DNA of 64,000 bases from contig JAAYDC010000006.1 of NCBI GenBank assembly GCA_012729455.1, forward strand, positions 27,782 through 91,781. Direction: 5' to 3'. Under the pieces are notes generated by a model that had not been told where the DNA came from, made no database searches, and saw nothing but the letters and a program-made list of their open reading frames with translations. How positions within the stretch are numbered: the stretch's first letter is position 1; each line of letters opens with the position of its first letter. A program made the translations under genes and the position numbers. Below, in pieces: positions 45,703 through 62,351 of the stretch. This DNA comes from Chloroflexota bacterium. GTDB taxonomy: Bacteria > Chloroflexota > Anaerolineae > UBA1429.

Positions 45703-45707
45703 GATGC

Positions 45708-47780
45708 TTACGGGCGAATGCATACCTCGCCGCAACCCACACGCCCTTCTTCGACCATCAGGCCGATCGCCCCTTCGGCCAAGCCTTGGGGGTCGTCGAC
45801 CTCACAGATCAGCTCACCATCCACCCAGGCGCTGATGCAGCTGCCGGCCACCTGCAGCGTGAGGGCATAGTCGCGGTACAGTTCCCAGTTGAATGCAGTG
45901 GTATAGAGCACGCGCGTGCCATCCAGCTCGCGTATCAGGCTGATGTTACCATCGGCAGCCAACTGTAGGGCATAATAGCGCTTTAATCCCTGCACCCTGG
46001 CGGCCAGCCCAAAGGAGCGCGCCAGATGCGGGCGAAAACAGGCCGAGATCGTATAGTCGCGCCATTCGCGCAGACCCTGGATCACCATGCCCGTGCCAGT
46101 GTTTTGCCAGAGCCAGTATTCCGGCTCACCGCCAGGTATAAAGTCATCGGCGGCCAGCACCCAGGCTTGCATCCAGCGCGCGTTCTGGGCTTTGGGCGCT
46201 GTAAAGCGCACCTCAGGCGCGCCCTCCCAGGTGAGCCAGTCGAGGTAAAGCGTGCCGGCCTCATCGCCGGAGGCAGCCAGTTCCAGCCCCACCCAGGCGA
46301 TCGGGCAGCCATCCGGAACACGCACGCGCCAGGAGAGCTCGCGCACCTCGCCGGGCTTGACACACACTGCCTCACCGCGAGCGGTCGCCAGCTGCTCACT
46401 GGCATCGTAATACTGCACTGCCAGCGCCAGGCTCAGATCGGCGCAGTTGGCGGCATCTGAACTGACCGCTGCCCAAAGCAGCTGACCGCTGTAGAGCGTG
46501 GGCGAGGCCTCTATATGGTAGCCTCCGCCGCGCGTCGCCGGATAGGCCTCGCGCCCTACGCTCACGCCCGATTGCGACGCAAGCCGGTCATAGCGAATCG
46601 CCAGCGCATGCGCGCCTGTGCCAGAGTGGCCGGCGACATTCTCTACCTGGCAATTGGTCCCTGCAAAGCCCTGCAGTGCCCCGGGCAGATCAAAGTGAAA
46701 GCGCGCGCCGCCCTTGGAGGCACTAAAGGGCACCCCAGCCAGGGCGCAGCCCGCCGCGGCTACTTCAACCGCCTCGCGCACCGCGTCCGTCACCACCCGG
46801 CCACCGTCGGCAGTGGGGATATAGATGCGGTCGGCCACTGGTGTACGGAAATCCACCTCGGCGTTGATGCCCTCCAGCCCAAGGCGCACACCCATCAGGC
46901 AGCCGACGTTGGCCGAGTTACAATCGGTATCCCAGCCGCTGGTGTTGACGATCATCAGCGCGCGCTGAAAGCTCTCGGCGCCATATAAAAGTGCCATGAT
47001 CACCAGGGCGTGGTTGGGGATGATGTGGCAGCCCCCGCCATAGCGATCATAACCGTAATGGGATTCGATCAACGCGCGGGTGGCGTGCCAATCCGGATTG
47101 GCAGCGTGCCAGGCACGGATATCGGCGATTAAGCGTGCGATCAGGCAGTCCTCAGGGATTTGCGCCAGGCCGATATCCAGCAAACGCCCCATATCGCGCT
47201 CGTTAAAGGCGGCTGCCACCATGGCAGCAATGACCTGGGCGCCATAAACGGCCTCGCCGTCGTGGGAGACCCTCGCAGCCAGGTAAGCCAGCTGTGCCGC
47301 GCGTGCCGGATCGCCGGGGGCTGCCAACCCCCAGGCGTCGATAAAAATCTGCGCGCCGATCTGTTCGGCTACCACCGGTCCGTTCAAGGCGATCGAGCCG
47401 CTCTCGGGCGCCTGGATGCCGGCCCTGAGCCGCAGGTAGGCGGTATGCTCGGTCGAGCGCCCCATTCCGCCCCACCACAGCACCGACTTGTTCTCTACCA
47501 GATAGTTCAACCAGGTTTGGGCGACCTGTTGAGAGGTGATCTCGGCGGGATAGCCATAATCCTGCAGAGCTCGCACAAAGGTAAAGGTCCCCGAGATGTC
47601 GTCATCCGGCAAGATCAGCGAGCGCCCAAGGCGCTCCTGCAGATAGCCGTTGACCTCACCCACCTCACGCATGATGCGCGCATAATCCCAACCCTCGATC
47701 GGGCTGCCCACATACACGCCGATGACTTTACCGAGCACCCCGGCATAAACCCGCTCCAGATAATCCGACGGGATCGGCAT
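45708..47780 (-). CDS. ADP-ribosylglycohydrolase-family domain fused to a C-terminal concanavalin/LamG-like jelly-roll domain
   Basis: The N-terminal about 400 aa match the ARH fold (GKVIGVYVGSPIEGWDY…, GWDTDCNSANVGCLMGVRLG). The C-terminal about 280 aa have a beta-sandwich/DUF1080-like pattern. A GGGAGGTGG RBS is present. Confidence 0.6.
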   Translation of the reverse strand: MPIPSDYLERVYAGVLGKVIGVYVGSPIEGWDYARIMREVGEVNGYLQERLGRSLILPDDDISGTFTFVRALQDYGYPAEITSQQVAQTWLNYLVENKSVLWWGGMGRSTEHTAYLRLRAGIQAPESGSIALNGPVVAEQIGAQIFIDAWGLAAPGDPARAAQLAYLAARVSHDGEAVYGAQVIAAMVAAAFNERDMGRLLDIGLAQIPEDCLIARLIADIRAWHAANPDWHATRALIESHYGYDRYGGGCHIIPNHALVIMALLYGAESFQRALMIVNTSGWDTDCNSANVGCLMGVRLGLEGINAEVDFRTPVADRIYIPTADGGRVVTDAVREAVEVAAAGCALAGVPFSASKGGARFHFDLPGALQGFAGTNCQVENVAGHSGTGAHALAIRYDRLASQSGVSVGREAYPATRGGGYHIEASPTLYSGQLLWAAVSSDAANCADLSLALAVQYYDASEQLATARGEAVCVKPGEVRELSWRVRVPDGCPIAWVGLELAASGDEAGTLYLDWLTWEGAPEVRFTAPKAQNARWMQAWVLAADDFIPGGEPEYWLWQNTGTGMVIQGLREWRDYTISACFRPHLARSFGLAARVQGLKRYYALQLAADGNISLIRELDGTRVLYTTAFNWELYRDYALTLQVAGSCISAWVDGELICEVDDPQGLAEGAIGLMVEEGRVGCGEVCIRP

Positions 47781-47895
47781 TACCCCACCTCCCTGCGTTG
47801 TTTTGTTTGTTGTAGCCCAGTGCCGGGCCCGCGTCAAGGGGCTGGTTTGACATCCACCGGGCTTTCGGGCATACCTAGGTCATACTACCTGATGG

Positions 47896-48960
47896 ATGGG
47901 TATGCGAAAGCTAACAATGCGCGAGCGCCTGCTGGCCGTGATCCACGGTAAGCCGCTCGACCGCGTGCCGCTGATCATGTACGAGGGGGTGATCCCCACT
48001 GATCAGGCCTGGCAGCTGCTGGGGCGCGAGCGCCTCGGGTTCTTGCGCTGGAGCGCGGTGCACCGTGTCGACACCCCGCACTGCCGTTTTGAGACGATCG
48101 AAAAGCGCGTCAATGGCCAGCGCCAGCAGCGCATCGTACTGCATACCCCCAAGGGCGACCTGTACGAAGAGCGTACCTTTGAGCCGGTGTATAATTCCAG
48201 CTCGATCCACAAGCACTTTGTGGAGGAACCTGAGGATTATGACAAGTTGTGGGCTTACCTGGAGGATGGCATCGTCGCGCCCGATTACGAGCGTTATCTA
48301 AAGGATGCAAGCGATCTGGGCGACGATGGCCTGCCCCTCACGGCTGTCGAACGCAGCCCCTACCAACAGCTATGGATCCAATGGGTCGGGCTCAGCACAC
48401 TCGGTTACCACTTTGCGGATATCCCCGAGCGCGTCGAGCATACCATGGCGCTCCTGCGGGCTCGCGCCCTGCAGATTTTCGAGATCGTGCGGCACTCGCC
48501 CACCGAGTTGATCGACTTTCCGGATAACATCACCGCGCCGCCGCTCGGCCCGCGCCGCTTTGCCGAGTATTGTGTGCCGCAATACAACCTGCTGGCCGAA
48601 ATGCTGGAGGGCAAGGGCGTCCCCGTGTTTGTGCACATGGATGGCGATCTCAAGCCCTTCTGGGAGATGATCGCTGCCTCCCGCGTTGACGGACTGGATT
48701 CGTTCGCCCCCGCACCCGATAACGACACCACCGTGGCGCAGGCGATCAGCATGTGGCCCGAAAAGCGGTTGTTTGTGAACTTTCCCTCTTCGGTGCACCT
48801 GCGCCCCTACGAGCAGGTGCGTGCCGAGGCCGAAGCAATCCTCGAGGCGGGCGGGCATACCGGCCGGCTAGAGATTCAGATATCAGAGAACGTGCCGCCC
48901 TTTGCATGGCCGACCAGTCTGCCGGCCATTGCCGACGCGATCGACGCGTTTCGCCCGTAG
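47896..48960 (+). CDS. uroporphyrinogen decarboxylase (URO-D)-family protein (MtaA/CmuA-like methyltransferase fold)
   Basis: The N-terminal RERLLAVIHGKPLDRVP matches the URO-D family signature. The product is 354 aa. Confidence 0.55.
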   Translation: MGMRKLTMRERLLAVIHGKPLDRVPLIMYEGVIPTDQAWQLLGRERLGFLRWSAVHRVDTPHCRFETIEKRVNGQRQQRIVLHTPKGDLYEERTFEPVYNSSSIHKHFVEEPEDYDKLWAYLEDGIVAPDYERYLKDASDLGDDGLPLTAVERSPYQQLWIQWVGLSTLGYHFADIPERVEHTMALLRARALQIFEIVRHSPTELIDFPDNITAPPLGPRRFAEYCVPQYNLLAEMLEGKGVPVFVHMDGDLKPFWEMIAASRVDGLDSFAPAPDNDTTVAQAISMWPEKRLFVNFPSSVHLRPYEQVRAEAEAILEAGGHTGRLEIQISENVPPFAWPTSLPAIADAIDAFRP

Positions 48961-48977
48961 GCGCAGGAGCAACACGC

Positions 48978-50042
48978 ATGACGCACTATGACGGCGGAGC
49001 TCACCAGCGGCCAGATCGGCCGCCGCACACCGCCTGGGTGTTTGGGATCCTGCTGGCGGCAGCTCTTCTGGCAGCCGGCCAGTTGATCGCCCTGGCGCGC
49101 TCGACCGGTCGATCCGATATAGCCATGCTGGCCGCCACTGGCACCTTTACCTGGCCGACCACGACACCGACGCGATTACCCACGTCCACCGCGACGTCCA
49201 CGGCGACACCCAGTCCGACGGCGCTGCCTCCGGTGGTGCAACTACCCAGCCGTGGGGTAACTGCCATGCCGTTGCCAACTTTGGCGCGTGACGCCTCACC
49301 GGTGATGCCGCGCGAGGGTACGCCCATCGCGACGCGTACCCCACTTCCACCCCTCCCGCCGGTTGAGTCGCAAGAGCCCTACCCTGCCCCCGACGTGGGC
49401 AATGTGCCGGCCGCCACCTTTACGCCGCGGCCGCCTTTGCAGCCATCTGGTTCGGGAGAGCCCTATCCACCGCCGGCATCCGGCGTTACCCACACAGCGG
49501 TGCCGGGGGTGCCGAACAGCACGCCCAGCTCGTCGGCTGAGGTGATCGAGCGCGTGACGGTGAATAACGGCGAATGGGGCGAGCGTGAGATCATTGTGCG
49601 CTATGACGAAACCGCCACCAGCGACGTGATGTATTTCCGTGCCGCCGACGGGGCACAGTACCGCGTGGTATTTGGATTCATCAATACCCCCGAGGCCCTG
49701 GCTGCTGTGCGGACCGCCTGGGCGGAGGCCAAGCGCGGCTCTGCAAACTGGGGCATGGTAATCACGGTGCGCAAGAGCGTCTCGGACTGGTACCAGTGCA
49801 CCGAGAGCATGCCGGTGTGCTATACCTCGCGCATCGATAGCGGCCAGGCGGTCGTATTTGTTGATGTTTATCTGCGTAACGCGGCCTGGCAGTCGCTCCT
49901 GAACGACTATTTGGCCATTGGATTACCAAAACTGATAGAAAACGCCAACTATCCCAAACTGCAGGAAGCTGTGTTTGAGCCGATGGTCGGCTCAGTGCCG
50001 GCTACCAGATGCATCGGGGTGACCTTTACGCGGGTGAACTGA
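48978..50042 (+). CDS. membrane-anchored hypothetical protein with Pro/Thr-rich linker and C-terminal globular domain
   Basis: An AGGAG RBS is present. One TM helix (WVFGILLAAALLAAGQLIAL) is followed by a (T/P/S)-rich stretch of about 150 aa and then a domain of about 170 aa. Confidence 0.5.
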   Translation: MTHYDGGAHQRPDRPPHTAWVFGILLAAALLAAGQLIALARSTGRSDIAMLAATGTFTWPTTTPTRLPTSTATSTATPSPTALPPVVQLPSRGVTAMPLPTLARDASPVMPREGTPIATRTPLPPLPPVESQEPYPAPDVGNVPAATFTPRPPLQPSGSGEPYPPPASGVTHTAVPGVPNSTPSSSAEVIERVTVNNGEWGEREIIVRYDETATSDVMYFRAADGAQYRVVFGFINTPEALAAVRTAWAEAKRGSANWGMVITVRKSVSDWYQCTESMPVCYTSRIDSGQAVVFVDVYLRNAAWQSLLNDYLAIGLPKLIENANYPKLQEAVFEPMVGSVPATRCIGVTFTRVN

Positions 50043-50043: not shown

Positions 50044-50083
50044 TAAAAAAAGGCCGCTCCCCTGGTCATAATCAGGGGAGCGG
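50044..50083 (-). terminator. bidirectional intrinsic terminator (11-bp stem ccgctcccctg / caggggagcgg), T7 on minus strand
   Basis: The hairpin lies downstream of the B12-rSAM gene on the minus strand and of the hypothetical gene on the plus strand. Confidence 0.7.
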
Positions 50084-50106: not shown

Positions 50107-51600
50107 TCAGGCGGCAAAGCTAGAGCCGAGCACATTCTCGCAGATGCGGCGGAAGTGAAAGCCATAGATAGCATAGGTGATCGCCTGAGCAAAAAGCCTG
50201 GGGCGATGTGTCAGGGTCCACCATACCAGTTTCCAGAATTCCTTGCGTTCTTTGCCCATACCGATCAAAAACACGGCTTTGAAAAAGGCTTTGATATAAG
50301 CCCAACTGAGCGGGAACTTGCTGGTCACGCGCTGCCGGTACTCGCTCAGGAAGGTGTGTACACGCTGGTAATAAGCCTTGGGGGCATAGATGGTCGCCAG
50401 GATACGCTCATAGCCCTTGTGCAGTACCTTGGGATCCATTTTAGGAATAAAGTTAATCGTGGCGTCGACGTTATCGCCCGACGGGTTCATCAAGAGACGT
50501 CCTTCGGATTTCAGGCGCTTGTAGAGCTCGGTGCCGTTGATGGCCTGCAGCAGACCCACCATGGCCGTCACAATCCCCGAACGCTGGATAAAGTCGATCT
50601 GGCGCTGGAAAATCGTCTCGTCGTCGCTATCAAAGCCGACGATAAAACCGCCATCGACCTCAAACCCGTTGCGCTGCAGGGTCTTGACGGATGCGAGCAG
50701 GTCGCGCTCGAGGTTTTGCGCCTTCTGGCACTCGTTCAGGCTATCAGCGTCGGGGGTCTCGATGCCCACAAACACCGAGTTAAAGCCCGCTTCGCTCATC
50801 ATGTCCATCAGTTCCTGGTCATCTACCAGGTTGATGCTCACTTCTGTTTTAAAGGCAACTTCGGGGTGATCTTTGCGCCACTCGATCAGTGCTGGCAGGA
50901 CCTCGTTTTTAAGCTGGCGTTTATTGCCAATAAAGTTATCGTCGACAAAAAAGGCGCCTTTGGTCCAGCCGGCATCGTACAGCGCATCGAGCTCCACAAT
51001 CACCTGGGCAGCCGTCTTGGTGCGCGGACGGTGCCCGAGCATCGAGGTGATGTTGCAGAAATCGCAGGCAAAGGGGCAGCCGCGTGAATATTGCAGGCAC
51101 ATGTCGGAGTATTTATCGAGCTTGGCCAGGTGCCAGAGCGGTACCGGCGTCTTGGTGACATCGGCGAATTCCTTTGTCTCGTAGAGCGGTTTAGGATTCC
51201 CGGCTTTTAGATCCGCCAAAAAGAGCGGCAGGGTGATCTCGCCCTCGTTGAGCACAAAATGGTCAACTTCGGGGAAATCCTGATGCTCGCCTAGAAAAAG
51301 CGGCCCACCCGCCACGACCTTTTTGCCTGCCTGCTTGCAGCGATGGATCAGGGCGCGTACTGAATCGCGCTGCACCACCATGGCGCTTACAAAGCAATAG
51401 TCGGACCATTGCAGGTCGCTCTCGGAGAGCTCTTCGACGTTCAAATCGACCAGGCGCTTTTCCCAGGATTCCGGCAGCAACGCCGCTATAGTCAGCAAGC
51501 CAAGCGGTGGCAAGCTGGCCTTTTTACTGATAAAAGGCAAGGCGTAACGAAAGCTCCAAAAAGTATCCGGATTCTCTGGGTACAGCAGCAAAGCACGCAT
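50107..51600 (-). CDS. B12-binding-domain radical SAM protein with C-terminal DUF4070-like region (class B rSAM)
   Basis: The product has an N-terminal B12-binding domain and the CxxxCxxC motif QYSRGCPFACDFCNIT. It is 497 aa. It is the last gene of the GRE operon. Confidence 0.75.
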   Translation of the reverse strand: MRALLLYPENPDTFWSFRYALPFISKKASLPPLGLLTIAALLPESWEKRLVDLNVEELSESDLQWSDYCFVSAMVVQRDSVRALIHRCKQAGKKVVAGGPLFLGEHQDFPEVDHFVLNEGEITLPLFLADLKAGNPKPLYETKEFADVTKTPVPLWHLAKLDKYSDMCLQYSRGCPFACDFCNITSMLGHRPRTKTAAQVIVELDALYDAGWTKGAFFVDDNFIGNKRQLKNEVLPALIEWRKDHPEVAFKTEVSINLVDDQELMDMMSEAGFNSVFVGIETPDADSLNECQKAQNLERDLLASVKTLQRNGFEVDGGFIVGFDSDDETIFQRQIDFIQRSGIVTAMVGLLQAINGTELYKRLKSEGRLLMNPSGDNVDATINFIPKMDPKVLHKGYERILATIYAPKAYYQRVHTFLSEYRQRVTSKFPLSWAYIKAFFKAVFLIGMGKERKEFWKLVWWTLTHRPRLFAQAITYAIYGFHFRRICENVLGSSFAA

Positions 51601-51699
51601 TTCACAAACTCCCATTTCACTTAAACGAGCTATCTATAAGACACCGAATCCCCCAGGCAGGTTACGCCTGAGGGATTCGAATTGCAGAAATGGGAGTTT
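51601..51699 (-). promoter_or_regulatory. structured intercistronic RNA element that sequesters the rSAM RBS in a perfect 13-bp long-range helix around a nested hairpin
   Basis: On the mRNA, AAACUCCCAUUUC lies directly after the pfk UAA stop. It is complementary to GAAAUGGGAGUUU, which contains the GGGAG Shine–Dalgarno 7 nt upstream of the rSAM AUG. A nested hairpin (cgaatccc-c-caggc-aggttac-gcctg-a-gggattcg, 51645–51679) lies between the two segments. Confidence 0.5.
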
Positions 51700-52986
51700 T
51701 TACTTGCGGTAATCCTGCGGGGTATACACCTCGAGCACCTGACGCACCTGCTGAGCGCCGAGTTCGGCGAAACGCAGCCGGCCATGCTCCAGGATGACCT
51801 CGGGCCAGCCATCACCCAGTAACGGCTGGGCGTAGCGGATAAAGTCATCCGTCACGTCACAATGGTCGCGGTCGATCCATTCCTTTGGAAAGGTGCGTTC
51901 AGAGTTGGCCATCTCGCCCAGCGGCACGCTGGTATAGCGCACCGTATAGGGCGCATCGGATGTGCGCACCAGGCTGGCCATCTTGCCGGATATGTGTTGC
52001 GCAGCCAACCCCGCGGCCTGCTGCCCGACGGCACGCGCCTCCGCCAGGTCGACGGTCGAGGCATACACGATATCGTGGCGCTGCTGCGTGCCAGGGATAT
52101 TGGCGCGCGCCGAGCCGCGCGCTGCCAGCCCTGCCTGGTTGAGATAGTTGACCAGCAGCTGTGCAGCGGTGCTGGCACTCGACGAGAACTGGGTATGCCC
52201 AAAGGCATCCTGACGTTCTCCCAGTGAGCCCAGATCAAGCCCTTCGCTCAGCACCACTATGGCGCGCCCAGCGCGCCGCAGGGTGTCATTGATCAGGTCG
52301 GCGAGCTCGGGCAGCGTATAGCTGCTTTCGGGCAGCAGCAGCAACATCGGTAACTCGCGCTGCGGATCTGCGAGCCGAGCCGCCGCCGGGATAAAGCCAA
52401 TCCGGCGTCCCATGGCTTGCAGCACCAGCACCGGGTCGGCTGGGAACGAACCGCGGTTTTCCTGATCGGCCTGCTGCACCGTCAGCGCCCAGTAGCGCGC
52501 ACAGCTGCCGTAACCGGGCGAGTGATCCAGCAGTTGGAACGCCTGGTCGCCCAGGTCGTTATCGATCGTCTTGGGTACACCCACTGCCACCAGGTCGGGC
52601 CCGCGCTGGTGCGCCAGGTCGGCAATCTTGTTGGCGGTGTCCATCGAGTCGTTACCGCCGATGTAAAACAGATAGCCCACTTCATGGGCTTGCAGCACGG
52701 CAATGACGCGCTCGAAATCCTGCTGGTTGGCCGAGCGTAACTTGTAGCGGCAGGTGCCGATCACCCCGGCAGCCGGCGTGGCTGAAAGCAATTCCACCTC
52801 GCGCGCTAGGGCAGCGCTGAGATCAAGCAGTTCTTCGCGCAGAAGACCCTCGACGCCGTTGGCTGCGGCATATAGCTTGCCAAAGGCGCGGCTGGCACGG
52901 CAACCCTCGATGATGCCGCGCAACGAGGCGTTGATCACCGGCGAGGGCCCGCCCGATTGCGCTACCAGCACATTACGCGCCGCCAT
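51700..52986 (-). CDS. pfk: 6-phosphofructokinase-family sugar-phosphate kinase; PPi-type signature (Asp104/Lys124 equivalents) but GGNDS instead of GGDGS/GGDDS
   Basis: The product contains the motifs [16 protein letters not shown] and [11 protein letters not shown] place the start at [20 protein letters not shown], with an AAGGGGG RBS. The start overlaps the gnd stop. Confidence 0.7.
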
Positions 52987-54406
52987 CGTGGCTGCCCCCT
53001 TGCAGACCCACCCAATCGGTGTGGAAGGATCCCTCACGGTCGGTGCGGCGGTAGGTGTGCGCGCCAAAGTAATCGCGCTGCGCCTGGGTCATGTTGGCAG
53101 GCAGGCGCTCGCTGCGATAGGCATCGTAATAAGCCAGCGCCGAGCTGAGCGCCAGACAGGGAATACCCAGCCGCACCGCCACCGTGACTACCTCACGCAG
53201 GGCCGGCACGCGCTCGATCATCGCCTGGCGGAAGAAGGGATCCAGCATCAGGTTGGTGAGCTTGGGGTCGCACTTATAGGCCGCGGTAATGTCGTTGAGG
53301 AAACGCGCCCGGATGATGCAGCCGCCACGCCAGATGGCGGCGATGCGCCCATAGTCCAGGTTATAACCAAACTCATCCGAGGCTGCGTGCAGCAGGCTCA
53401 TGCCCTGCGCGTACGAGCAGATCTTGGCCGCGTACAGCGCCGCGCGCACCTGGCTGATCAACGTCTGACGGTCGCCCTCATAGGCAGCTTGCGGACCCGG
53501 CAGCACCTTGCTGGCTGCCACGCGTTCGGCCTTGTATGCCGAGATAATGCGCGATTCGACGGCTGCGTTGATTGTAGGTGTGGGGGCGCCCAGATCCAGG
53601 GCGCTCTGCGAGGTCCACTTGCCAGTGCCTTTTTGCTGGGCTTCGTCGAGGATCACATCCACGAGCGGTACGCCCGTCTCGACATCCGATACAGCCAGGA
53701 TATCGGCGGTGATCTCGATCAGATACGACTGCAGCTCGGCCTGGTTCCACTCGCTGAAAATGCTGTGCAGTTCGGACGCCGAAAGGTTCAGGGCACGATG
53801 CAGGATATCGTACGATTCGGCGATCAGCTGCATATCGCCATACTCAATGCCGTTGTGCACCATTTTGACATAGTGCCCCGCTCCGCGTGGGCCGATGTAG
53901 GTGACACATGGTTCGCCATCCACCTTGGCGGCGATGGACTCAAAGATCTGCTGCACGAGCGGGTAGGCATCGGGCTGGCCGCCAGGCATGATAGCTGGCC
54001 CCCGCAGGGCACCCTCCTCACCGCCCGAGACGCCCGTGCCGATATAGCGCAAGCCGGCCTTTTCGAGCGCGGCGGCGCGCCGTTCGGTATCCTGGTAAAA
54101 CGAGTTGCCGCCGTCGATAATCAGGTCGCCGGGTTCGAGCACCGGCACGAGCTGGTCGATTACCGCATCAACCGGCGCTCCTGCCTTGACCATCAGCATC
54201 ACCCGGCGCGGGCGCTCCAGGGCAGCCGCCAGCTCTTCAAGGGTAGCGCAGCCAGTCAGCTTTTTGCCGGGATGCTCAGCAATAAAATCTTCCGTTACGC
54301 TGGTGGTACGGTTGTATACCGCCACGTGGTAACCGTTGCGCTCCATGTTCAAGACCAGGTTCTGGCCCATTACAGCCAGGCCGATCAAACCGATTTGGCT
54401 TGCCAT
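52973..54406 (-). CDS. gnd: 6-phosphogluconate dehydrogenase (decarboxylating)
   Basis: The 477-aa product has [15 protein letters not shown] and IDGGNS motifs. A TAGGAGG RBS is present. Confidence 0.85.
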
Positions 54407-54415
54407 AAGTACCTC

Positions 54416-55669
54416 CTAGGAGCCCTTGAGTTTATAAAGCAGTTCGCCGGCGCGAGGTACCACCAGGATACCCTCGTCTTCTTTGCCGGCCAGATCAGCT
54501 GGGTTAAAGCTATTGGGGTCGAGATAACCCAGGTTAATACGCTCACAACGTTCTCGCGGGATGCCCGTCGCCAGCACCACGTTCACGCGCGGATGCTCGA
54601 CGCCATCCGTATAAGTGCCGTCACCCTTTACGTGGCAGGCATGTGCCAGAACCGCCTGCGGCTCGTTGGCCACCTTATCCCAGTTGCTAAGGAAGTAGTC
54701 GCGCACATGGTAGCCCACATGATCGAGCACCTTGCCATGCACGTAGGATACTTCGGTAATATGTGGTGCATAGATCACCACGGTGCCGCCATCCGCCACC
54801 GCCGGCTCGACCTTGTACATGCCCTTGGAGCCGGTCCACAGGTCGTCGTACAGTTTCGGCATCACCGAGATCACCTTGTTAAAGGGTTTATCAACCCACA
54901 CCACGTTCCACAGCGCCGAAAGCTCGGCGGCCTTGGCTTGTGATTCTTCGGGCGTGCCGTAAAAGACGCCCGCAAGGTCATGATGACCTTTGACCACCAG
55001 GCTAAAGCAGCGCCGCTCGGTGGGGATCATGGTGGCAGCCTGATCAAGCATACGGCGCACCGCCGTATGCTGGTTGCCGATTATGGCGTGGCAGGTGATC
55101 AGCGCGGAGAGCCAGTGGGTCTGGTCGATCATGTTGCCGCCACTGATGCCCGGGAAAAAGTACTTGTTGCCGCCCGAAAAGCCGACCACCTCGTGCGGGA
55201 AAACCGGCCCCAGCACGATCAGATAGTCGTAATCCCTGACGCGGGCATTGATCTGCACGTTGATAGGCTCATGCATACGTCCGTCGGAGATCTCGGCCAC
55301 CTGCTCGGCACGGATGGTGCCGATATCCATCAGGCCGTGCTGCCAGTCGTGGTTGTAGATGCCCACTTCGGCATAACGGCCGGCACGCTCTTCGGAGCTA
55401 AAGCCAAAATGGCGCTCCAGCACCTCGCCCGTCATGGGGATGTGCGTGCCTGTGGCGATCAGAAAATCCAGCTTGGACGCCACTCCCAAGAGCTCATCGG
55501 TGATGATGCGAAAACAGAGCGGCAGCGGCAGACTGCGCGTGCCATCCGGCACGATAAAGAGCACCCGCTTGCCCTTTAATGGTGTGGCGGCAAAAGCCTC
55601 GCTAAAGACCTGCCGCACCTCATCATCCGTCAGAAACCGAGCGGTGCAACCTTTGCCAATCACCATCAT
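54416..55669 (-). CDS. LarA-family protein (Ni-dependent 2-hydroxyacid racemase/epimerase homolog, DUF2088), paralog 2
   Basis: The product contains the patterns RVLFIVPDGTRSLP and ATGTHIPMTGE. Its start overlaps the upstream stop in a TAATG arrangement. Confidence 0.65.
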   Translation of the reverse strand: MMVIGKGCTARFLTDDEVRQVFSEAFAATPLKGKRVLFIVPDGTRSLPLPLCFRIITDELLGVASKLDFLIATGTHIPMTGEVLERHFGFSSEERAGRYAEVGIYNHDWQHGLMDIGTIRAEQVAEISDGRMHEPINVQINARVRDYDYLIVLGPVFPHEVVGFSGGNKYFFPGISGGNMIDQTHWLSALITCHAIIGNQHTAVRRMLDQAATMIPTERRCFSLVVKGHHDLAGVFYGTPEESQAKAAELSALWNVVWVDKPFNKVISVMPKLYDDLWTGSKGMYKVEPAVADGGTVVIYAPHITEVSYVHGKVLDHVGYHVRDYFLSNWDKVANEPQAVLAHACHVKGDGTYTDGVEHPRVNVVLATGIPRERCERINLGYLDPNSFNPADLAGKEDEGILVVPRAGELLYKLKGS

Positions 55670-56568
55670 TACCCTGCCTTTCTCCATGGAGGAACCTCGG
55701 GCAAAAGACGTTCAAACTCGCTGACCAACTCGGCCTCATAGCTGCCGGCATAATCGAGTGCCAGAAAGCGCGGCAAACCCTCCTGGTAAAAGCGCTCCCA
55801 CGACTGTTCTTCATGGCCGGGGTTGATGGGAAAAAAGAGGGCCTGGTTATCGCGCGCGGCTTTCAGGTCGCCGGGCGCATCGCCGATCATCAATACATGC
55901 TCGGGTGCGTAACGGCCCTGCGAGCTCAGGCGGATATGTTCAGACTTGGTGCCCATCTCCTGGCCGGCGATCACCCGAACCAGGCCATCCAGGCTGTGTT
56001 CCTGCCATTCGCGGCGCAGCGCCTCGAGAGGCGTCTGCGACACCACAACAATATCGGCGCGCTCGTGCAGGGTGCTGAGTGATTCGCGCACCAGCGGGAA
56101 GGGCGGCACTCCGTGCACCATATCGGCGATGGTGGCGTTGACAGCCTTGCTCCAGGCCAAGGCGCGTTCCAGCTCGATACTGGGGTGCTCGCGAAGATAG
56201 CTGGCCAGAAAGTCGTTGCTGAGCCCACCCCCCTCGGCGATAAAGGCCCTGACATCGGTAAGCGGATGCACCACCGCGTTGCGCGCCTGCACCTCGGGGC
56301 GCTCGCGCAAGAGGTCAAGCACCTTGACCAGCGCCGGCCAGCGATTTACGCCGCGCCACTTGCTGTAGAGGTTGACGAACTCGGCCGCCTCGCGCGCGTA
56401 CTTTGATACGGACTGCAACTCCCAATAGTTGATGATGTTGGGAATAAAGCATTCCTTGTGCTTGATCTCCATAGTATCAAACACGCAGCCATCCGAGTCA
56501 ATCCCCACGAAAAAGGGGTGTTCAGCCTGCAACTCAGTCAGATGGGCAGAAAACTGTGTCAAGCTCAT
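55669..56568 (-). CDS. HAD-superfamily hydrolase (probable phosphatase)
   Basis: The product has HAD motif I (FFVGIDSDGCVFDT) and the C-terminal MIGDAPGDLKAA motif. Confidence 0.6.
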   Translation of the reverse strand: MSLTQFSAHLTELQAEHPFFVGIDSDGCVFDTMEIKHKECFIPNIINYWELQSVSKYAREAAEFVNLYSKWRGVNRWPALVKVLDLLRERPEVQARNAVVHPLTDVRAFIAEGGGLSNDFLASYLREHPSIELERALAWSKAVNATIADMVHGVPPFPLVRESLSTLHERADIVVVSQTPLEALRREWQEHSLDGLVRVIAGQEMGTKSEHIRLSSQGRYAPEHVLMIGDAPGDLKAARDNQALFFPINPGHEEQSWERFYQEGLPRFLALDYAGSYEAELVSEFERLLPEVPPWRKAG

Positions 56569-56583
56569 GCATGCCCCCTTGTG

Positions 56584-57417
56584 CTATACACCGCTGAACG
56601 CCGCAAAGCCGCCATCCACTACTGTGGTAGTGCCGTGCACAAAGGCGGATCCGGGCGCAAGCAGCCAGAATATGGTGCTGAGCAGCTCCTGCGGATCGCC
56701 CAGACGGTGCATGGGGGTATGCCCGACCACCGACTGCCCGCGCGCTGTAAGCTCGCCAGTGCCTTCGACGGTCATCAGGTAGCGGTTCTGCTCGGTAAGA
56801 TAAAAACCGGGGGCAATGGCGTTAACGCGGATGCGCGGCGAATAGTTATGCGAGATGTGCACCGCCAGCCATTCGGTAAAGTTGCGCACGGCTGCCTTGG
56901 CAGCTGAATAAGCCGGGATGTTGGTGAGGGGTTTGATGGCGTTAATCGAGGCGATGTTGATAATCGAGCCCTCGCCGCGTTCGGCCATATGCTTGCCAAA
57001 AACCTGACAGCAAATCAAGGCCGTTTTAAAGTTGAGATCAAAGACGCTCATAAAGGTGTCGAGCGGCAGATCGAAAAAGGGCAGCTCCGCGCTGGTAGTG
57101 GCTTCTTTGCGGTTGCCGCCGGCACCGTTAATCAGCGCATCGACGCAGCCATAAGCCTCAAGGGCGCGCGCAAGGGCTGCCTCGACATTGGCTTTATCCA
57201 GACAGTTGACCTCGAGTGCCATGGCCTGGCCGCCTGCCTGGGTAATGCGATCGACGACTGCCTGCGCCTTGGCTGGGTTATAGTCCATCACCAGGATACG
57301 TGCGCCTGCTCTGGCAAGCGCGTCAGCCATGGCACCGCACAGGATGCCTCCTCCGCCGGTGATGGCAATCACTTTGTCTTGTACTGAAAACAACTCGGCC
57401 AGATAGTCATTTGACAT
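56584..57417 (-). CDS. SDR-family oxidoreductase (gluconate 5-dehydrogenase/KduD-like)
   Basis: The product has the TGGGGILCGAMA Rossmann motif and the YSAAKAAV catalytic motif. An AGGAG RBS is present. Confidence 0.8.
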   Translation of the reverse strand: MSNDYLAELFSVQDKVIAITGGGGILCGAMADALARAGARILVMDYNPAKAQAVVDRITQAGGQAMALEVNCLDKANVEAALARALEAYGCVDALINGAGGNRKEATTSAELPFFDLPLDTFMSVFDLNFKTALICCQVFGKHMAERGEGSIINIASINAIKPLTNIPAYSAAKAAVRNFTEWLAVHISHNYSPRIRVNAIAPGFYLTEQNRYLMTVEGTGELTARGQSVVGHTPMHRLGDPQELLSTIFWLLAPGSAFVHGTTTVVDGGFAAFSGV

Positions 57418-57427
57418 GCGAGTACTC

Positions 57428-59590
57428 CTAAAGCGATTCGTGTTCGGTGCGAAGGATAATTTCTTCCTGCATGCGCGGCGAGAGCCCGACGAAATAGTCG
57501 CTGTAGCCGCCGATGCGCACCACCAAGTCGCGATATTGTTCGGGGTGCGATTGGGCAGCCAAAAGGACCTCTTTATCGACCACATTGACCTGGATCTCAA
57601 AACCGCCGCGCTGGATAAAGGTATCCACCAGGTTGCACAGACTTTGCGCAAAAGTGTCGCGCTGGCCAGTGCGAGCGAATTTGAGGTTCACGGCGATGCC
57701 GCCCAACATGGGGGTGTGGTCCCATTTGGTCGACGAGAGCACCGCTGCAGTCGGCCCCAGCCGTTCACGCCCCTGAGCAGGGCCCGAGCCGTCGCCCAGG
57801 GCTTGGGCGGCCAAGCGGCCATCGGCTGAGGCAGCCGTCACCTCGCCAAGGCGTTCGTGCATAATCCAGCAAAACAGCCCGGGATGGTAGTCGTCCCCCA
57901 AAAAGGTGCGGTAGCGTGCGCACTCGGCCCTAATGCGCTCGGTCACGCGCACCGCCAGCTGGTCGACCGAATCGTCGTCGTTGCCGTACTTGGGTACCTG
58001 GTTGAGGAACATCAGCCGCAGGTCTTCGCGTCCGGCATAGTTGCTGGCCAGCACCTCGGCCAGTTCGCTCAGGCTGATGCGCGGCTCGTCGTAGACAAAC
58101 TTGCGGATCACAGCCAGGGTATCCACCAGGTTGGCGAGCCCCACAAAGGAGGGCTCGATCCAATTGTGGCGGGCGCCGCCGCGGTCGATATCCAATCCGC
58201 GTGCCAAGCAGTCATTGACAAAGCACGAGAGCAGCGGCCATCCGCCATGATAATAACGCGTCATCTGGTTGGTGTTTTCACCGATCACGCCATGCAGCAG
58301 GAGCTCGGAGAGCTGCGCCTCGTAGGCTGCCAGCAGGCTCTCGAAATCCGGGTAGTCGGCCGGCTGGCTGGTAAGCCCCTGGGTTTGCGCTGCCCCAGCT
58401 CCGCGCGCCAGCGGGGCAATGCCCAACAGGTCGTGCAGGGGCTCCAGAAGGTTTATGTAGGGGCTTGCAACATAGACATTGGAGGAGGCAACCGGCGTCA
58501 TCTCGACGCAGGTGCTGTGCTGGTAAAGGCAGGCTTCGGCGGGCGGCAAACCGGCCTCGAGCATCCCCTGTGTGATGACCTCATCGTTAAAGATGGCCGG
58601 GTGGCTGAGCCCCTCGGACAAGAGCTCGCTGGCCAGCTGTTTAATATCCTCAGGCATCTCGGGCGTCCAGCACAGGCCGATGCCCGGATATGCCAGACGC
58701 GTATGGCGGATGGAACGCAAAAAGAGGCGCGTCAGATCGTTGCAGATATCCTTACCGCTGCCATCGCGCCCGCCCACCATGAAACCCACCGCCAGGCTGC
58801 GCGGTGTATAGACGTTAAAGAGCATGCACAGGCAGTCGATCAGTTCCTGCGCGCCGGCCTCGTCGATGGTGCCGTTCTTCAAATCACGCTCGTAATAGGG
58901 GAGCAGGTAACGGTCGGGGCGCCCCAGCTGGAAGAGCAGCATCATCTGGCTGGCGCACAGCGCAAAGGTCACCAGATGGATGGCCTGCATCGCCTCGTAA
59001 AAGCTGGTCGCCGGGTGCTCTGGCACGCGCCGGCAAATGTTGGCGATCTCGTATAGCTCCATGGCGCGCCTGGAATCGGCACGCGCTGCCAACTCTTCGG
59101 CATGCACCGCATAACGCTCCGAAAACGTCGAGAGGCCGTCCAGGGCGATCAAACAGGCGCGGTAAAAGGCATCCTTTTCGAGCTCGGAGGGCACCGTCAG
59201 GTTGAGGCGGCTGCGGAAGACGGCGATGCGTTCGCGGATGCCTACTAACCCGTGGCGCAGCAAGAGCTCATAGTCGATCGCCATATGCGCCCTTTGCCCC
59301 AGGACGGGCGAGGCAGCGCGGGAGGCATCTTTTTGCCAATGGGTCAACTCTTCTTGTTCGGCATCCGTGAGCTTGCGGCTGGGGAACTTGCCCACCAGGA
59401 GCTCGTCGTCGCCAATCTCGGGCGTCAGGCCGGTTAGCACCGCGGCGGTCGCCTGAGCACGCCGCACCAGCGGCCAGGGCTCGCGCGTGGTCGCAAGCCA
59501 CGAGCGTCCCCACAACAGCTCTGGCTCGCTGCTGTGGACCGAGCCCTGTTCCAGAAATGCGGCGCGTAACCGCTCGATGCGTTCCGTCAT
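57428..59590 (-). CDS. glycyl radical enzyme, PFL2/eliminase clade (C-x-E active-site loop), substrate unknown
   Basis: The C-terminal glycine-radical loop is VRIGGYSDYFVGL. The Cys loop is STCVEMTP, which has the Cys-x-Glu arrangement seen in GDH, CutC, HypD and PD rather than the Cys-Cys of PFL. The product is 720 aa. A GAGAGGAG RBS is present. Confidence 0.8.
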   Translation of the reverse strand: MTERIERLRAAFLEQGSVHSSEPELLWGRSWLATTREPWPLVRRAQATAAVLTGLTPEIGDDELLVGKFPSRKLTDAEQEELTHWQKDASRAASPVLGQRAHMAIDYELLLRHGLVGIRERIAVFRSRLNLTVPSELEKDAFYRACLIALDGLSTFSERYAVHAEELAARADSRRAMELYEIANICRRVPEHPATSFYEAMQAIHLVTFALCASQMMLLFQLGRPDRYLLPYYERDLKNGTIDEAGAQELIDCLCMLFNVYTPRSLAVGFMVGGRDGSGKDICNDLTRLFLRSIRHTRLAYPGIGLCWTPEMPEDIKQLASELLSEGLSHPAIFNDEVITQGMLEAGLPPAEACLYQHSTCVEMTPVASSNVYVASPYINLLEPLHDLLGIAPLARGAGAAQTQGLTSQPADYPDFESLLAAYEAQLSELLLHGVIGENTNQMTRYYHGGWPLLSCFVNDCLARGLDIDRGGARHNWIEPSFVGLANLVDTLAVIRKFVYDEPRISLSELAEVLASNYAGREDLRLMFLNQVPKYGNDDDSVDQLAVRVTERIRAECARYRTFLGDDYHPGLFCWIMHERLGEVTAASADGRLAAQALGDGSGPAQGRERLGPTAAVLSSTKWDHTPMLGGIAVNLKFARTGQRDTFAQSLCNLVDTFIQRGGFEIQVNVVDKEVLLAAQSHPEQYRDLVVRIGGYSDYFVGLSPRMQEEIILRTEHESL

Positions 59591-59606
59591 ATCCCCATAT
59601 CTCCTC

Positions 59607-60509
59607 TCAGCTGTGCTTGACCTGAATGCCCGCCTGAGCGGCAATCTCAGTCAGCTCATCCATCAGCTCTTTAGCGGGACGTTTGATCTCACGGGCACGG
59701 TAATCCATGCCCAGGCTATCGTACTTACCGGATGCCATCGGATGAAACGCTAGCAGCTCGTAATAAAGCAGGTTGGGCAACTCGGCCGCAAAGTGCGCAA
59801 TAGCGCTGATCTCCTCGGGAGTATCGTTAACGCCCGGCACCAGCGGGGTACGGATGATCAGTGGTTTGCCCTGCGCAGCCAGGGAGCGCAGGTTCGCCAG
59901 GATGCGCTCGTTCGAGACACCAGTGCATTCGCGGTGGCGGGCGTCGTCCATCAGTTTGACGTCCGCCATCACGAGGTCGGTGACGTCTAAAATCGCCTCG
60001 ACGCGGGCCCATGGGAAATGCAGCGCCGTCTCGATGGCAGTATGCAGACCCTGTTCGCGGCTCAATCGCAGGATCTCGTGAGCAAAGTCGAACTGCAGCA
60101 GGGGTTCGCCGCCCGAAAGAGTGATGCCGCCCTGTGAAGTCTCGTAAAAGGGCTTGTCGCGCAGCACCTCGTCAACGACTTCCTGAGCCGTCTTGACCTC
60201 GCCGGCGATGACCAGCGCTTCAGCATAACAAGTCTCAGCACAGCGCCCGCAGGCCTCGCAGCGCTCGCGATGATAGGCGCGCCCGTCGAGCAACTGCTCG
60301 TGAGCTGCGTTCGGGCAGCGCTCAAAGCAGGCGCCGCAGCCGATGCAGCGGTTCGGGAAAATCTGCAGCTGGCGTTTGGGTTCGAGCGTCTCGGGATTGT
60401 GGCACCAAAAGCAACGCAGGTTGCAGCCCTTGAAAAAGACGGTCGTGCGGATGCCCGGGCCATCGTGAATTGAAAAACGCTGAATATTGGTAACGATGCC
60501 GTTGACCAC
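59607..60509 (-). CDS. glycyl-radical enzyme activating protein (radical SAM, with inserted 2x[4Fe-4S] ferredoxin-like domain)
   Basis: The rSAM cluster lies in GCNLRCFWCHNPE and additional CxxCxxC(x)nCP clusters follow. The start codon is GTG. Confidence 0.85.
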   Translation of the reverse strand: MVNGIVTNIQRFSIHDGPGIRTTVFFKGCNLRCFWCHNPETLEPKRQLQIFPNRCIGCGACFERCPNAAHEQLLDGRAYHRERCEACGRCAETCYAEALVIAGEVKTAQEVVDEVLRDKPFYETSQGGITLSGGEPLLQFDFAHEILRLSREQGLHTAIETALHFPWARVEAILDVTDLVMADVKLMDDARHRECTGVSNERILANLRSLAAQGKPLIIRTPLVPGVNDTPEEISAIAHFAAELPNLLYYELLAFHPMASGKYDSLGMDYRAREIKRPAKELMDELTEIAAQAGIQVKHS

Positions 60510-60671
60510 GATCCCCTCGCCCTATGAGATGCTGCGTACTAGGATCACATATTACCCCGAACCCACGAAAATGACCACTCCGCAATTCTCAGGGCGGATC
60601 GAACGGGCGCACTGGCGGCGCGAATGTCGTATAATGGAGCCAGACGGTCTTGCGCGCAGGGAGGATCGCTC

Positions 60672-62351
60672 GTGGCACGCATTTATCCGCAACGCCTCAG
60701 CCCCGAAACAAATAGTTATGCCGAGCGCCAGCTGTACGAGGCTCTGGCCGACACATTGCCCAACGACTATTGCGTATTCCACAGCGTGCGCTGGCTGCTG
60801 CGCGACGGATACAGCGGTACTCGCGACGGCGAAGCCGACTTTGTGGTAGCACACCCGGACAAAGGCTTGCTGGTGATCGAGGTCAAGGGCGGCAGCATCG
60901 GCTACGACGGCGCGCTCGACCAGTGGAGCAGCAACGGCAACCCGATCAAAGACCCCTTTGCGCAGGCACAGAATAACAAATACAGCCTGTTGAGCAAGCT
61001 CAAGGAAGCGCCCTTTTGGCGCGACCGCTTTATCAGCCTGGGACACGCGGTAGCCTTCCCGGATGTCACCGTTCGCGGCGATCTGCGCATGGACGCACCG
61101 CGCGAGATCATCCTGGATCGTGCCGACATGGCCGACCTGCCGGCCGCCATCGAGCGTATCTACCGCGCCTTCGCCGATGATCGAAGCGATGTCCTTGGCA
61201 GCGCCGGCATCACTGCGCTGATCGATGTGCTGAGCCCGTCGCGCGAAATCAGGCGCCTGCTCTCGGCCGATATCAGCCACGAAGCTCAGGAGATGCTAGA
61301 GCTCACGGATAACCAGTTCCGCCTGCTGGATATCCTCACTTACCAGCGGCGTGTGGCTGTTTCGGGCTGCGCCGGCTCGGGCAAGACCACCTTGGCCATC
61401 GAGCAGGCCCGCCGGCTGCACGCCCAGGGCTTTCGTGTGCTGCTGACCTGTTTTAACGTGCATATGGCAGAGTATTTCCGCAGTCTCGGTCTGCCGAGTG
61501 AGATCGTGATCGACCATTTCCACCATTTGGCAGCTGATTATTGCCGGCAGGCCGGCATGGCGCTGCAGGAACCGAGCGATGATGAGGCAGCCAGGTTCTA
61601 TGACGAGCTGCCAGAGCGCCTGATGGAGGCGATCGAGGTGATCGGCCCGCAGTTCGATGCTATCGTGGTAGATGAAGGCCAGGACCTGGATTTGCTGGCG
61701 TGGACCAGCCTGCAGGCTCTGCTGTGCGAGCCGGATACCGGTATCCTGTACGTCTTTTATGACGACAATCAGACGCTTTATCCGCGTGCCGGCGCGATCC
61801 CCAGCGAGCTGCGACAGGCGGCCTTGTCGCTCACCGATAATCTGCGCAACACTCAGGCGATCCACCAGGCGTTTTTACCCTTTTACCACGCAGAGCGCAT
61901 GCCGCGTTCGGTGGGGCCGGCCGGGCGTGTGCCCGAAATCCAATACTACCAGAACGAGGTCCAGCTAAAATCCCAGTTGCGGGGGCTGCTCAATCGGCTG
62001 CTGGTGGCCGAACTGGTGCCGGCAGGTAATATCACCATACTGACGCCGCGCAGTGCAGAAAATAGTCCCATGGCGAGCTGGAAGATCCTGGGGAATAACC
62101 GATTTAACCTGAGCGGCTCGCTCAAGCCCGGCGAGATCCGTGTGCGCTCGATCTACAAGTTCAAGGGGCTGGAGAGCGCGGTAGTGATCGTGGTAGGCCT
62201 CAGCACGCGCGACTTTCAGGATCTTAACAAGCTGCTGTATGTAGCCTGCTCGCGAGCCTGCAACCACCTGTTTATCCTGGCAGAAGAGGGCTTGCCCGAT
62301 GAGTATCGCGCCCGTCTGGCCGCCCCCAGATGGCAACTGACCGAAAGCTAG
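60672..62351 (+). CDS. NERD (nuclease-related) domain fused to SF1 UvrD-like helicase core
   Basis: The N-terminal NERD domain is ERQLYEAL…DGEADFVVAHPDKGLLVIEVKGG. It is followed by a Walker A motif (GCAGSGKTTLA), a DEGQD Walker B motif and C-terminal helicase motifs. A TATAAT -10 element lies at 60630–60635. A GGGAGG RBS precedes the GTG start. Confidence 0.7.
   Translation: MARIYPQRLSPETNSYAERQLYEALADTLPNDYCVFHSVRWLLRDGYSGTRDGEADFVVAHPDKGLLVIEVKGGSIGYDGALDQWSSNGNPIKDPFAQAQNNKYSLLSKLKEAPFWRDRFISLGHAVAFPDVTVRGDLRMDAPREIILDRADMADLPAAIERIYRAFADDRSDVLGSAGITALIDVLSPSREIRRLLSADISHEAQEMLELTDNQFRLLDILTYQRRVAVSGCAGSGKTTLAIEQARRLHAQGFRVLLTCFNVHMAEYFRSLGLPSEIVIDHFHHLAADYCRQAGMALQEPSDDEAARFYDELPERLMEAIEVIGPQFDAIVVDEGQDLDLLAWTSLQALLCEPDTGILYVFYDDNQTLYPRAGAIPSELRQAALSLTDNLRNTQAIHQAFLPFYHAERMPRSVGPAGRVPEIQYYQNEVQLKSQLRGLLNRLLVAELVPAGNITILTPRSAENSPMASWKILGNNRFNLSGSLKPGEIRVRSIYKFKGLESAVVIVVGLSTRDFQDLNKLLYVACSRACNHLFILAEEGLPDEYRARLAAPRWQLTES

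Follow-up and report, generated by a model that had tools for sequence, protein, structure and literature searches.

Eight consecutive genes on the minus strand of a Chloroflexota genome, at 50107-60509 of the 64 000 nt stretch analysed here (assembly GCA_012729455.1, contig JAAYDC010000006.1, positions 27,782 to 91,781; hereafter the window), raise the question of whether they form a single anaerobic pathway centred on a glycyl radical enzyme (GRE), as a sequence-only reading of the window had proposed. The window is a 61 % GC stretch of a Chloroflexi metagenome-assembled genome (MAG), and gene starts were refined via ribosome-binding sites and the N-termini of homologues. Our analysis makes it probable that there is no GRE-centred eight-gene pathway here and that three separable units have instead been made neighbours in one Anaerolineae lineage. 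The first is an activase together with a C-x-E GRE whose clade, known from uncultured anaerobes, is large and uncharacterised. The second is a five-gene hexuronate-to-pentose-phosphate cassette, in which the reductase, epimerase and dehydrogenase steps are assigned from family membership and recurrent context. The third is a B12-radical SAM/DUF4070 gene, which lies behind a strong hairpin and is unrelated to the other two.

Gene content and conservation of the array

All eight open reading frames (ORFs) are real, and Pfam and NCBIfam confirmed the family that the sequence-only reading had given to each, with the exception of the subtype of the short-chain dehydrogenase/reductase (SDR). From the activase onwards the array encodes the GRE, the SDR, a HAD-superfamily protein, a LarA-like protein, 6-phosphogluconate dehydrogenase (Gnd), a PFK-family protein and a radical SAM (rSAM) protein, and the successive junctions measure 16, 10, 15, -1 (TAATG), 9, -14 and 84 nt. 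The spacing of at most 16 nt that had been described holds for six junctions (-14 to +16 nt) and fails at the seventh, between the PFK and rSAM genes, with its 84-nt gap. A tight, co-directional array of seven genes is typical operon architecture, and it is neither a chance pattern nor unusual.

The conservation of this gene set was assessed from both ends. We examined 78 loci that carry a GRE of this clade in species-representative genomes, with 10-kb flanks, and compared the window proteins with them by tblastn (loci are given by our handles, from L001 upwards). The SDR-HAD-LarA-Gnd-PFK cassette was found downstream of the GRE in only five of the 78 (L001, L003, L005, L007 and L010), all of them close Anaerolineae with GREs 66-75 % identical to that of the window. 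Equally similar GREs with adequate flanks and no cassette occur in L004, L011, L012 and L016. Among the cassette-bearing relatives the GRE-SDR spacer runs from 39 nt (L001) up to approximately 3 kb, and the GRE of L007 is separated from the cassette by a LacI regulator and a second GRE. Synteny in these five relatives also takes in unrelated genes on the opposite strand (a Radical_SAM_N2 protein and DUF2344), which suggests that the gene order was inherited rather than the adjacency selected for. From the other end, a metagenome scan seeded with an alignment of the LarA-like protein gave at least 566 relatives, and the best 80 loci, at 47-59 % identity, were examined. The neighbours of the LarA-like gene in these loci were Gnd (24 loci), SDR (20), HAD (17), PFK (11) and, in a single locus, a GRE that is 27 % identical, on the opposite strand and unrelated. 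A pathway built around the GRE is not borne out by these counts; the neighbourhood is conserved in five close Anaerolineae and not in the rest of the GRE loci. The sequence-only reading had named loss of adjacency in relatives among the outcomes that would count against it, and the outcomes it named are largely those that we found.

The last gene of the array encodes a 502 aa B12-binding radical SAM protein with a DUF4070 domain (50107-51615, minus strand; Pfam B12-binding 38.9 bits, Radical_SAM 54.8 bits, DUF4070 132.8 bits), which reached no NCBIfam equivalog. It had been counted as the eighth member of the pathway, and an explanation in which all eight genes, this one included, serve one pathway from one transcript can draw on their common strand and on the presence of the rSAM gene after the cassette in the closest relative, L001. 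We consider this explanation extremely improbable, as the rSAM gene does not follow the cassette in L003, L005, L007 or L010, nor in any of the 80 LarA loci, and its GC content (54.6 %) is lower than that of the other seven genes (58-64 %). Moreover, the 84-nt PFK-rSAM spacer holds a stable GC-rich hairpin (51644-51680, minus strand) with a stem of 15-16 bp in a terminator-like scan. The 96-nt PFK-rSAM interval folds at a dG of -40.2 kcal/mol (z = -6.39), and none of 200 shuffled sequences was equally stable. This hairpin is likely to be a transcript boundary or a stabiliser. The rSAM gene is a bystander, adjacent to the conserved units yet outside them. The same scan returned a second terminator-like hairpin 3' of the rSAM gene (50054-50083), and a search of the region for sigma-70 promoters was uninformative, with 3 sites versus 4.8 expected.

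The glycyl radical enzyme and its clade

The GRE gene (57428-59590, minus strand) encodes 720 aa from an ATG at 59590 that is preceded by GAGAGGAG, and its product is 100 % identical to the NCBI MAG protein GXY52_01925. Pfam matches to PFL-like (392 bits) and Gly_radical (84 bits) place it in the GRE superfamily. The glycyl motif RIGGY, at the place of the superfamily pattern RVxG[FYW], occupies residues 692-696 (RIGGYSDYF), with G695 as the radical glycine, and the Cys loop reads C361-V-E363. This agrees with the C-x-E eliminase type assigned from sequence earlier; C-x-E serves as the class definition for GRE 1,2-eliminases and isomerases (PMC13450708). Residues C361, E363, H102 and G695 were invariant in an alignment of 24 diverse clade members. 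The activase gene (59607-60509, minus strand; 300 aa, GTG start) lies 16 nt upstream of the GRE gene. Its product has the motif CNLRCFWC (CX3CX2C) at residue 29 together with a two-cluster insert of ferredoxin-like type, matches Pfam Radical_SAM, Fer4_12 and Fer4, and reaches 359 bits with TIGR02494, for which the cutoff is 174; it fell under the cutoff of all substrate-specific activase equivalogs in NCBIfam. Judged by these motifs, the predicted radical glycine, thiyl cysteine, Glu/His acid-base pair and cognate activase are all present.

The earlier statement that the GRE stands outside every characterised family was supported, with best equivalog scores of 310-356 bits against cutoffs of 1000-1100. 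No curated GRE cutoff was reached: the protein scored 450 bits against 678 for TIGR01774 (PFL2-3 subfamily), 356 against 1000 for HpsG, 347 against 1100 for HypD, 314 against 1109 for PflD (PRK09983), 313 against 1000 for HpfG and 310 against 1050 for CutC. When the indoleacetate and HPA decarboxylase models are included with those for CutC, HypD, HpsG, HpfG and PflD, the range is 222-356 bits against cutoffs of 1000-1150. In a PDB search the nearest solved structures were CutC, glycerol dehydratase, propanediol dehydratase, YbiW and HypD, at 296-338 bits, and the best matches (CutC and glycerol dehydratase, E-100) reached approximately 335 bits compared to a self-score of approximately 1650 bits. 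The discovery of GREs remains an active field; a review of 2026 covers all characterised GREs and describes whole clades that are still without an assigned chemistry (PMC13450708), and no GRE in that review corresponds to the one in the window. A literature search for a GRE linked to LarA or to 6-phosphogluconate gave nothing usable.

Specific identities were also considered and rejected. The GRE is not a pyruvate formate-lyase, as its Cys loop reads S-T-C-V-E without a Cys-Cys pair and TIGR01255 gave 103 bits versus 994. Glycerol or diol dehydratase was rejected on the replacement of S282 by L219 and of D447 by A375, in addition to the TIGR01774 score. Sulfonate, choline and hydroxyproline chemistry were ruled out by the equivalog scores and by the active-site histidine, the position of which we take, partly from PMC13450708, to be Asp in CutC and Arg or Gln in IslA, with the positions not aligned here. 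CutC, HypD, HpsG/HpfG and IslA share with the window GRE its superfamily, the catalytic Cys/Glu pair and the activase type; they differ in that their scores are far under cutoff and in that no cut, hyp or sulfonate context is present in the window.

Glycerol dehydratase (C. butyricum, 1r8w) and propanediol dehydratase (5i2a) resemble the window GRE in their PFL-like barrel and glycyl radical domain and in a dedicated activase with extra Fe-S clusters, and they match it at about 335 bits (E-99). C433 and E435 of glycerol dehydratase correspond to C361 and E363, and H164 to H102. The alignment of active-site residues that the sequence-only reading had recommended had a divided outcome, with the catalytic Cys, Glu and His of glycerol dehydratase retained and other pocket residues replaced: H281/S282 by L218/L219, Y339 by A267 and D447 by A375. 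In addition, 11 residues are deleted just before A267, and the N-terminus is approximately 65 residues shorter. Genes for a microcompartment, for an aldehyde dehydrogenase or for 1,3-propanediol are missing from the vicinity, unlike in the context of glycerol and propanediol dehydratases. The replacements imply a predicted pocket that is larger and less polar (more hydrophobic) than that of glycerol dehydratase. A larger hydroxylated molecule, perhaps one derived from carbohydrate, is the probable substrate. A second comparison is offered by YbiW/PflD, the 1,5-anhydroglucitol-6-phosphate and 1,5-anhydromannitol-6-phosphate isomerases of 'anhydroglycolysis', which are C-x-E GREs that act on carbohydrate derivatives. 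YbiW has in common with the window GRE the motifs GGA(K/R)xxW and RSR(I/L)NLTV and the conserved His; it differs in scoring 303 bits (E-89), and the window is without phosphotransferase system, aldolase or anhydro-sugar genes.

By analogy with established GRE chemistry, the activase would place a radical on G695, from which it would move to C361. The C361 thiyl radical would then take a hydrogen from a hydroxyl-bearing (carbinol) carbon, E363 would deprotonate that hydroxyl to give a ketyl, and the beta C-O leaving group would depart with the help of H102, the counterpart of His164 in glycerol dehydratase. In that enzyme, Glu435 is now thought to deprotonate the C1 hydroxyl and His164 to protonate the leaving hydroxyl (PMC13450708).

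The clade to which the GRE belongs is large, with 1153 homologues at E<=1e-10, those listed being approximately 715-735 aa in length. The 78 loci come from Chloroflexota, Armatimonadota, Clostridia, Planctomycetota, Lentisphaerota, Spirochaetales and Latescibacterota, every one of them from a MAG or an uncultured bacterium. All ORFs of the 78 loci were clustered de novo and their neighbours scanned with Pfam, and the activase emerged as the sole conserved partner of the GRE; it is near the GRE, within the 10-kb flanks, in about 30-37 of the 78 loci, and clusters with it in 30. The Pfam scans took in 113 first and 102 second neighbours (215) of the remaining clade members, among which 130 and 134 different Pfam families were found, none with more than five occurrences; housekeeping genes (CarB, RtcB and GlnA3) are among them. 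A multi-phylum clade of this size, in uncultured anaerobic polysaccharide degraders and with a distinct active site, is a legitimate target for functional discovery.

Two GRE paralogues in tandem, or flanking one activase, were seen in L007, L020, L065, L070 and L072, which suggests diversification of substrates within the clade. A protein of approximately 721 aa adjoins the GRE or activase at L003:6197-8359, L010:6019-8181, L015:6075-8339, L043:5975-8143 and L072:14304-17594, and it recurs in three lineages without a match in Pfam, the PDB or the GRE profile. Where it lies upstream of the activase (L003, L010 and L015), it was examined as a degenerate GRE paralogue and rejected, with an hhalign probability of 3 % and no Pfam or PDB match.

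The same neighbourhoods bear upon an explanation in which the GRE has its partners elsewhere, the substrate being tied to URO-D/MtaA-like proteins (with a corrinoid-type methyl transfer or decarboxylase-like function) or to general oxidoreductases, and the position of the cassette being incidental. URO-D-like genes are the most frequent neighbours other than the activase, with 19 matches in 14 of 79 GRE loci compared to one of 80 control loci (Fisher p = 2.7e-4), and one of them directly adjoins the GRE in L018 and L069. The window itself carries a URO-D-like gene at 47896-48960 on the plus strand, and the other loci with URO-D/MtaA-like genes are L004, L012, L016, L018, L026, L030, L044, L048, L056, L064, L069, L072 and L077. 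Genes for Zn-dependent alcohol dehydrogenases, GFO/IDH/MocA proteins and IclR regulators also recur near clade members. However, the distance to the GRE is 1-8 kb for most URO-D-like genes, roughly half of these genes lie on the opposite strand, the control loci are of different taxonomy, and neither a corrinoid protein nor an MttB-type methyltransferase emerged among the recurrent neighbours. The URO-D-like proteins also match MtaA models weakly (37-66 bits versus cutoffs of 235-400). We regard this explanation as improbable. The IclR regulators beside some clade members were all under the cutoff for KdgR or any other specific type.

The uronate cassette and its possible link to the glycyl radical enzyme

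The five genes between the GRE and the hairpin make up the second unit. The SDR (56584-57417, minus strand; 277 aa) is a UxuB-type D-mannonate/fructuronate oxidoreductase, with 337.8 bits against a cutoff of 281 for NF006132/PRK08277. It had been taken for a 5-ketogluconate-reductase-like enzyme, and this was overturned, as the 5-ketogluconate-reductase/gluconate-5-dehydrogenase model gave 158 bits versus 279. Gnd (52973-54406, minus strand; 477 aa) is a bona fide decarboxylating, NADP-dependent 6-phosphogluconate dehydrogenase by both NF006765 (723 bits versus 413) and TIGR00873 (718 versus 427).

Between these two genes lie those for the LarA-like and HAD proteins. The LarA-superfamily member (54416-55669, minus strand; 417 aa), the start of which overlaps the HAD stop codon (TAATG), is a GntE-like nickel-pincer nucleotide (NPN) enzyme. 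It matches Pfam Lar_N and, weakly, NF052594 'NPN hexonate epimerase' (190 bits versus a cutoff of 500). Its best PDB match, over the full length, was T. maritima GntE2 (4NAR, E=7.5e-53), compared to E-11 for LarA itself. The segment PHEVVGFSGGNK contains the H-E-V loop signature and the NPN-tethering lysine and is conserved in six orthologues; its PHEV-GFSGGxK portion joins the loop signature with that lysine. An H-E-(V/S) loop signature marks the hexonate-epimerase groups 18-20 of the LarA superfamily (PMC7583248). The protein is a remote relative of GntE2, with a predicted activity like that of a hexonate 2-epimerase.

The HAD protein (55669-56568, minus strand; 299 aa) belongs to subfamily IA and has an enlarged cap and a DSDG motif, of which D24, S25 and D26 were each invariant in an alignment of 26 sequences. 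It has a weak match to Pfam HAD_2 and none in NCBIfam, and a PDB sequence search returned no match. An AlphaFold2 model (pLDDT 92.6) was assigned by Foldseek to phosphoglycolate phosphatase and beta-PGM type HADs with a probability of 1.0, at TM scores of 0.43-0.50 that are low because the cap is enlarged. At least 8000 homologues were found, and the top 120 are listed at 64-76 % identity. This HAD-IA family is very large, has neither a curated model nor a solved structure, and is repeatedly linked to the GntE-like epimerase.

The PFK-family protein (51700-52986, minus strand; 428 aa) starts 14 nt before the end of Gnd and falls within the PRK14072 (PPi-PFK-type) subfamily, with 358 bits versus 273 for NF010675 and E-65 matches to PDB 3hno and 3k2q. 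The variant GGNDS motif pointed out by the sequence-only reading is present, and it was found in all 14 of the cassette-linked PFK-like sequences examined (13 orthologues and the window's own). The canonical motif is GG(D/G)(G/D)S, and the solved homologue 3hno reads GGGDS at this position. Orthologues with GGNDS were seen at L001, L003, L005, L007, L010, L083, L088, L095, L100, L112, L115 and L137. The motif suggests that this protein may be a kinase specialised for sugar acids and not a PFK of glycolysis. The aldonate theme that had been noted for the SDR, LarA-like protein, Gnd and kinase was borne out.

Other neighbours that recur at the 80 LarA loci are glucuronate isomerase (UxaC), tagaturonate epimerase (UxaE), a KdgK-like kinase and LacI, as well as a PdxB-like dehydrogenase and a protein of the inositol-monophosphatase family. 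UxaE or UxaC lies directly upstream of the SDR in L079, L082, L100 and L134, in the place held by the GRE in the window. The presence of UxaC and UxaE in the cassettes of relatives indicates that the cassette is a variant of the route from hexuronate via mannonate and GntE to Gnd. GntE has a demonstrated D-gluconate/D-mannonate 2-epimerase activity, and that it channels mannonate into the pentose phosphate pathway is a proposal (PMC7583248); the route itself was put forward for Thermotoga (Rodionova 2012, cited in PMC7583248 and PMC6978723). The cassette is thus autonomous and widespread, and a variant of an already described and partly demonstrated route (PMC7583248, PMC6978723).

In this route, UxaC or UxaE in the cassettes of relatives would convert hexuronate to fructuronate, which the UxuB-type SDR would reduce to D-mannonate. 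The GntE-like nickel-pincer epimerase would invert C2 to give gluconate, or 6-phosphogluconate if a phosphorylated form is used, and Gnd would convert 6-phosphogluconate to ribulose-5-phosphate. The HAD-IA and GGNDS PFK-like proteins, co-inherited with the cassette, would presumably dephosphorylate and phosphorylate a sugar acid. The hexuronate locus of T. maritima (GntE LarAH20 4NAR, GntK and Gnd) likewise clusters a UxuB-type reductase with a LarA-family 2-epimerase and Gnd. It differs from the cassette, which has no recognisable gluconate kinase and instead carries the GGNDS PFK-family protein and the highly conserved HAD-IA protein. The net logic of hexuronate to 6-phosphogluconate to ribulose-5-phosphate is common to the cassette, T. 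maritima and L. suebicus (PMC7583248, PMC6978723), the last of which uses a kinase acting on mannonate together with a 6-phosphomannonate 2-epimerase (PMC6978723).

A second context of the LarA-like gene was seen in L083, L088, L112, L116 and L086, in which it comes after a PdxB-like gene of the 4-phosphoerythronate-dehydrogenase type and before a PFK-like gene; some of these loci also have Gnd close by. In eight other loci the LarA-like gene is followed by an inositol-monophosphatase/HisN-like gene. These contexts hint at phosphorylated sugar acids as possible substrates of the epimerase.

Several observations weigh against our separation of the GRE from this cassette, and they suit an alternative in which the GRE is a functional member of a sugar-acid pathway in this lineage. 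The GRE would then carry out a radical C-O cleavage or isomerisation of a uronate- or aldonate-type (or related carbohydrate) substrate, and its carbonyl product would enter the UxuB-SDR/GntE-like/Gnd route in place of UxaC/UxaE. The GRE-SDR junctions are short (10 nt here and 39 nt in L001), and no terminator was predicted at the 10-nt junction in the terminator-like scan. Judged by that junction, the GRE unit and the cassette probably share one transcript in this genome; a single transcript across the GRE-SDR boundary, here and in L001, is very likely and usually signals shared function. The adjacency persists in six Anaerolineae genomes at 60-75 % protein identity. GRE-linked cassettes have no UxaC or UxaE within 10 kb, and so the GRE could supply the substrate of the SDR; in cassettes without a GRE, one of the two is often the gene immediately upstream of the SDR. 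Hexuronate genes also occur beside clade members in other organisms. Two near-identical Clostridia loci (L029:2747-8572 and L063:10001-15826) carry GRE-IclR-activase-UxuA-UxuB on one strand, and an Oscillospiraceae locus (L076:4299-13474) carries LacI-UxaC-GH4-GH20-GRE-Na+/H+ exchanger, also on one strand and with no activase nearby. In L011, UxaE lies 6 kb from the GRE. GREs that act on sugar phosphates have precedent (PMC13450708), and the two motifs shared with YbiW are those of a GRE that cleaves a sugar phosphate.

Against this alternative stand the 79 of 80 LarA-cassette loci that have no GRE, and the roughly 65 of 78 GRE loci that have no hexuronate gene within 10 kb. The four independent lineages with a hexuronate link are close to chance at approximately 5 % per locus in genomes rich in uronate genes, a rough estimate of our own that was not computed. 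The neighbours of the clade are otherwise heterogeneous, as described above, and in L007 a LacI regulator parts the GRE from the cassette. We therefore consider a functional link between the GRE and the cassette unlikely, though it is the alternative that we would take most seriously. The Clostridia cluster in L029 and L063 is a second, independent tie of the GRE clade to mannonate metabolism. A role for the GRE as a replacement for mannonate dehydratase was rejected, as UxuA occurs alongside it in both loci.

A more far-reaching form of this link is doubtful in our judgement. It holds that the clade performs a new radical C-O cleavage or isomerisation on a carbohydrate related to uronic acids or aldonates, and that in the Anaerolineae lineage it replaces UxaC/UxaE as the entry to the UxuB/GntE-like/Gnd shunt, with the GGNDS PFK-like and HAD proteins handling phosphorylated sugar acids. 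If true, this shunt could also supply the missing genes of the 6-phosphomannonate route.

With the three separable units as the preferred explanation, what is new is an orphan GRE clade within a known enzyme class and a uronate shunt that contains the HAD and PFK proteins, while the hexuronate route itself is already known. Our data also give negative guidance: because the cassette is autonomous and widespread, the adjoining aldonate genes are an unreliable clue to the substrate of the GRE. The cassette is a useful lead in its own right: in it, a GntE-like nickel-pincer epimerase and Gnd occur together with a conserved HAD protein and with a PFK-family protein whose motif is unusual. It may point to the still unidentified genes that lead from phosphorylated mannonate to 6-phosphogluconate in the redox-neutral fermentation of uronic acids.

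Neighbouring features of the window

Upstream of the array, a gene for a NERD-domain/UvrD-like helicase (60624-62351, plus strand) diverges from the activase gene over a 114-nt intergenic region, and it is not found at this position in the syntenic relatives. Beyond the rSAM gene, a 429 aa ORF rich in Pro, Thr and Ser (48753-50042, plus strand) gave no match in Pfam; its called extent overlaps the URO-D-like gene at that gene's end, and the true start probably lies further downstream. The stretch at 43818-47837 encodes a Zn-dependent alcohol dehydrogenase (43818-44810), a xylose-isomerase-like TIM-barrel protein (44848-45648) and a 709 aa protein with an ADP-ribosylglycohydrolase domain (45708-47837). 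The family of the alcohol dehydrogenase recurs near members of the GRE clade from other phyla (L019, L020, L040 and L047), and that of the TIM-barrel protein near the member in L076.

Scanned against Rfam, the whole window gave no regulatory RNA within 50107-60509. The sole match was an FMN riboswitch (RF00050, 97.7 bits) at 11308-11449 on the minus strand, directly upstream of an ABC transporter operon that comprises a permease (10459-11313), an NMT1/THI5-like binding protein (9455-10447) and an ATPase (8700-9458).

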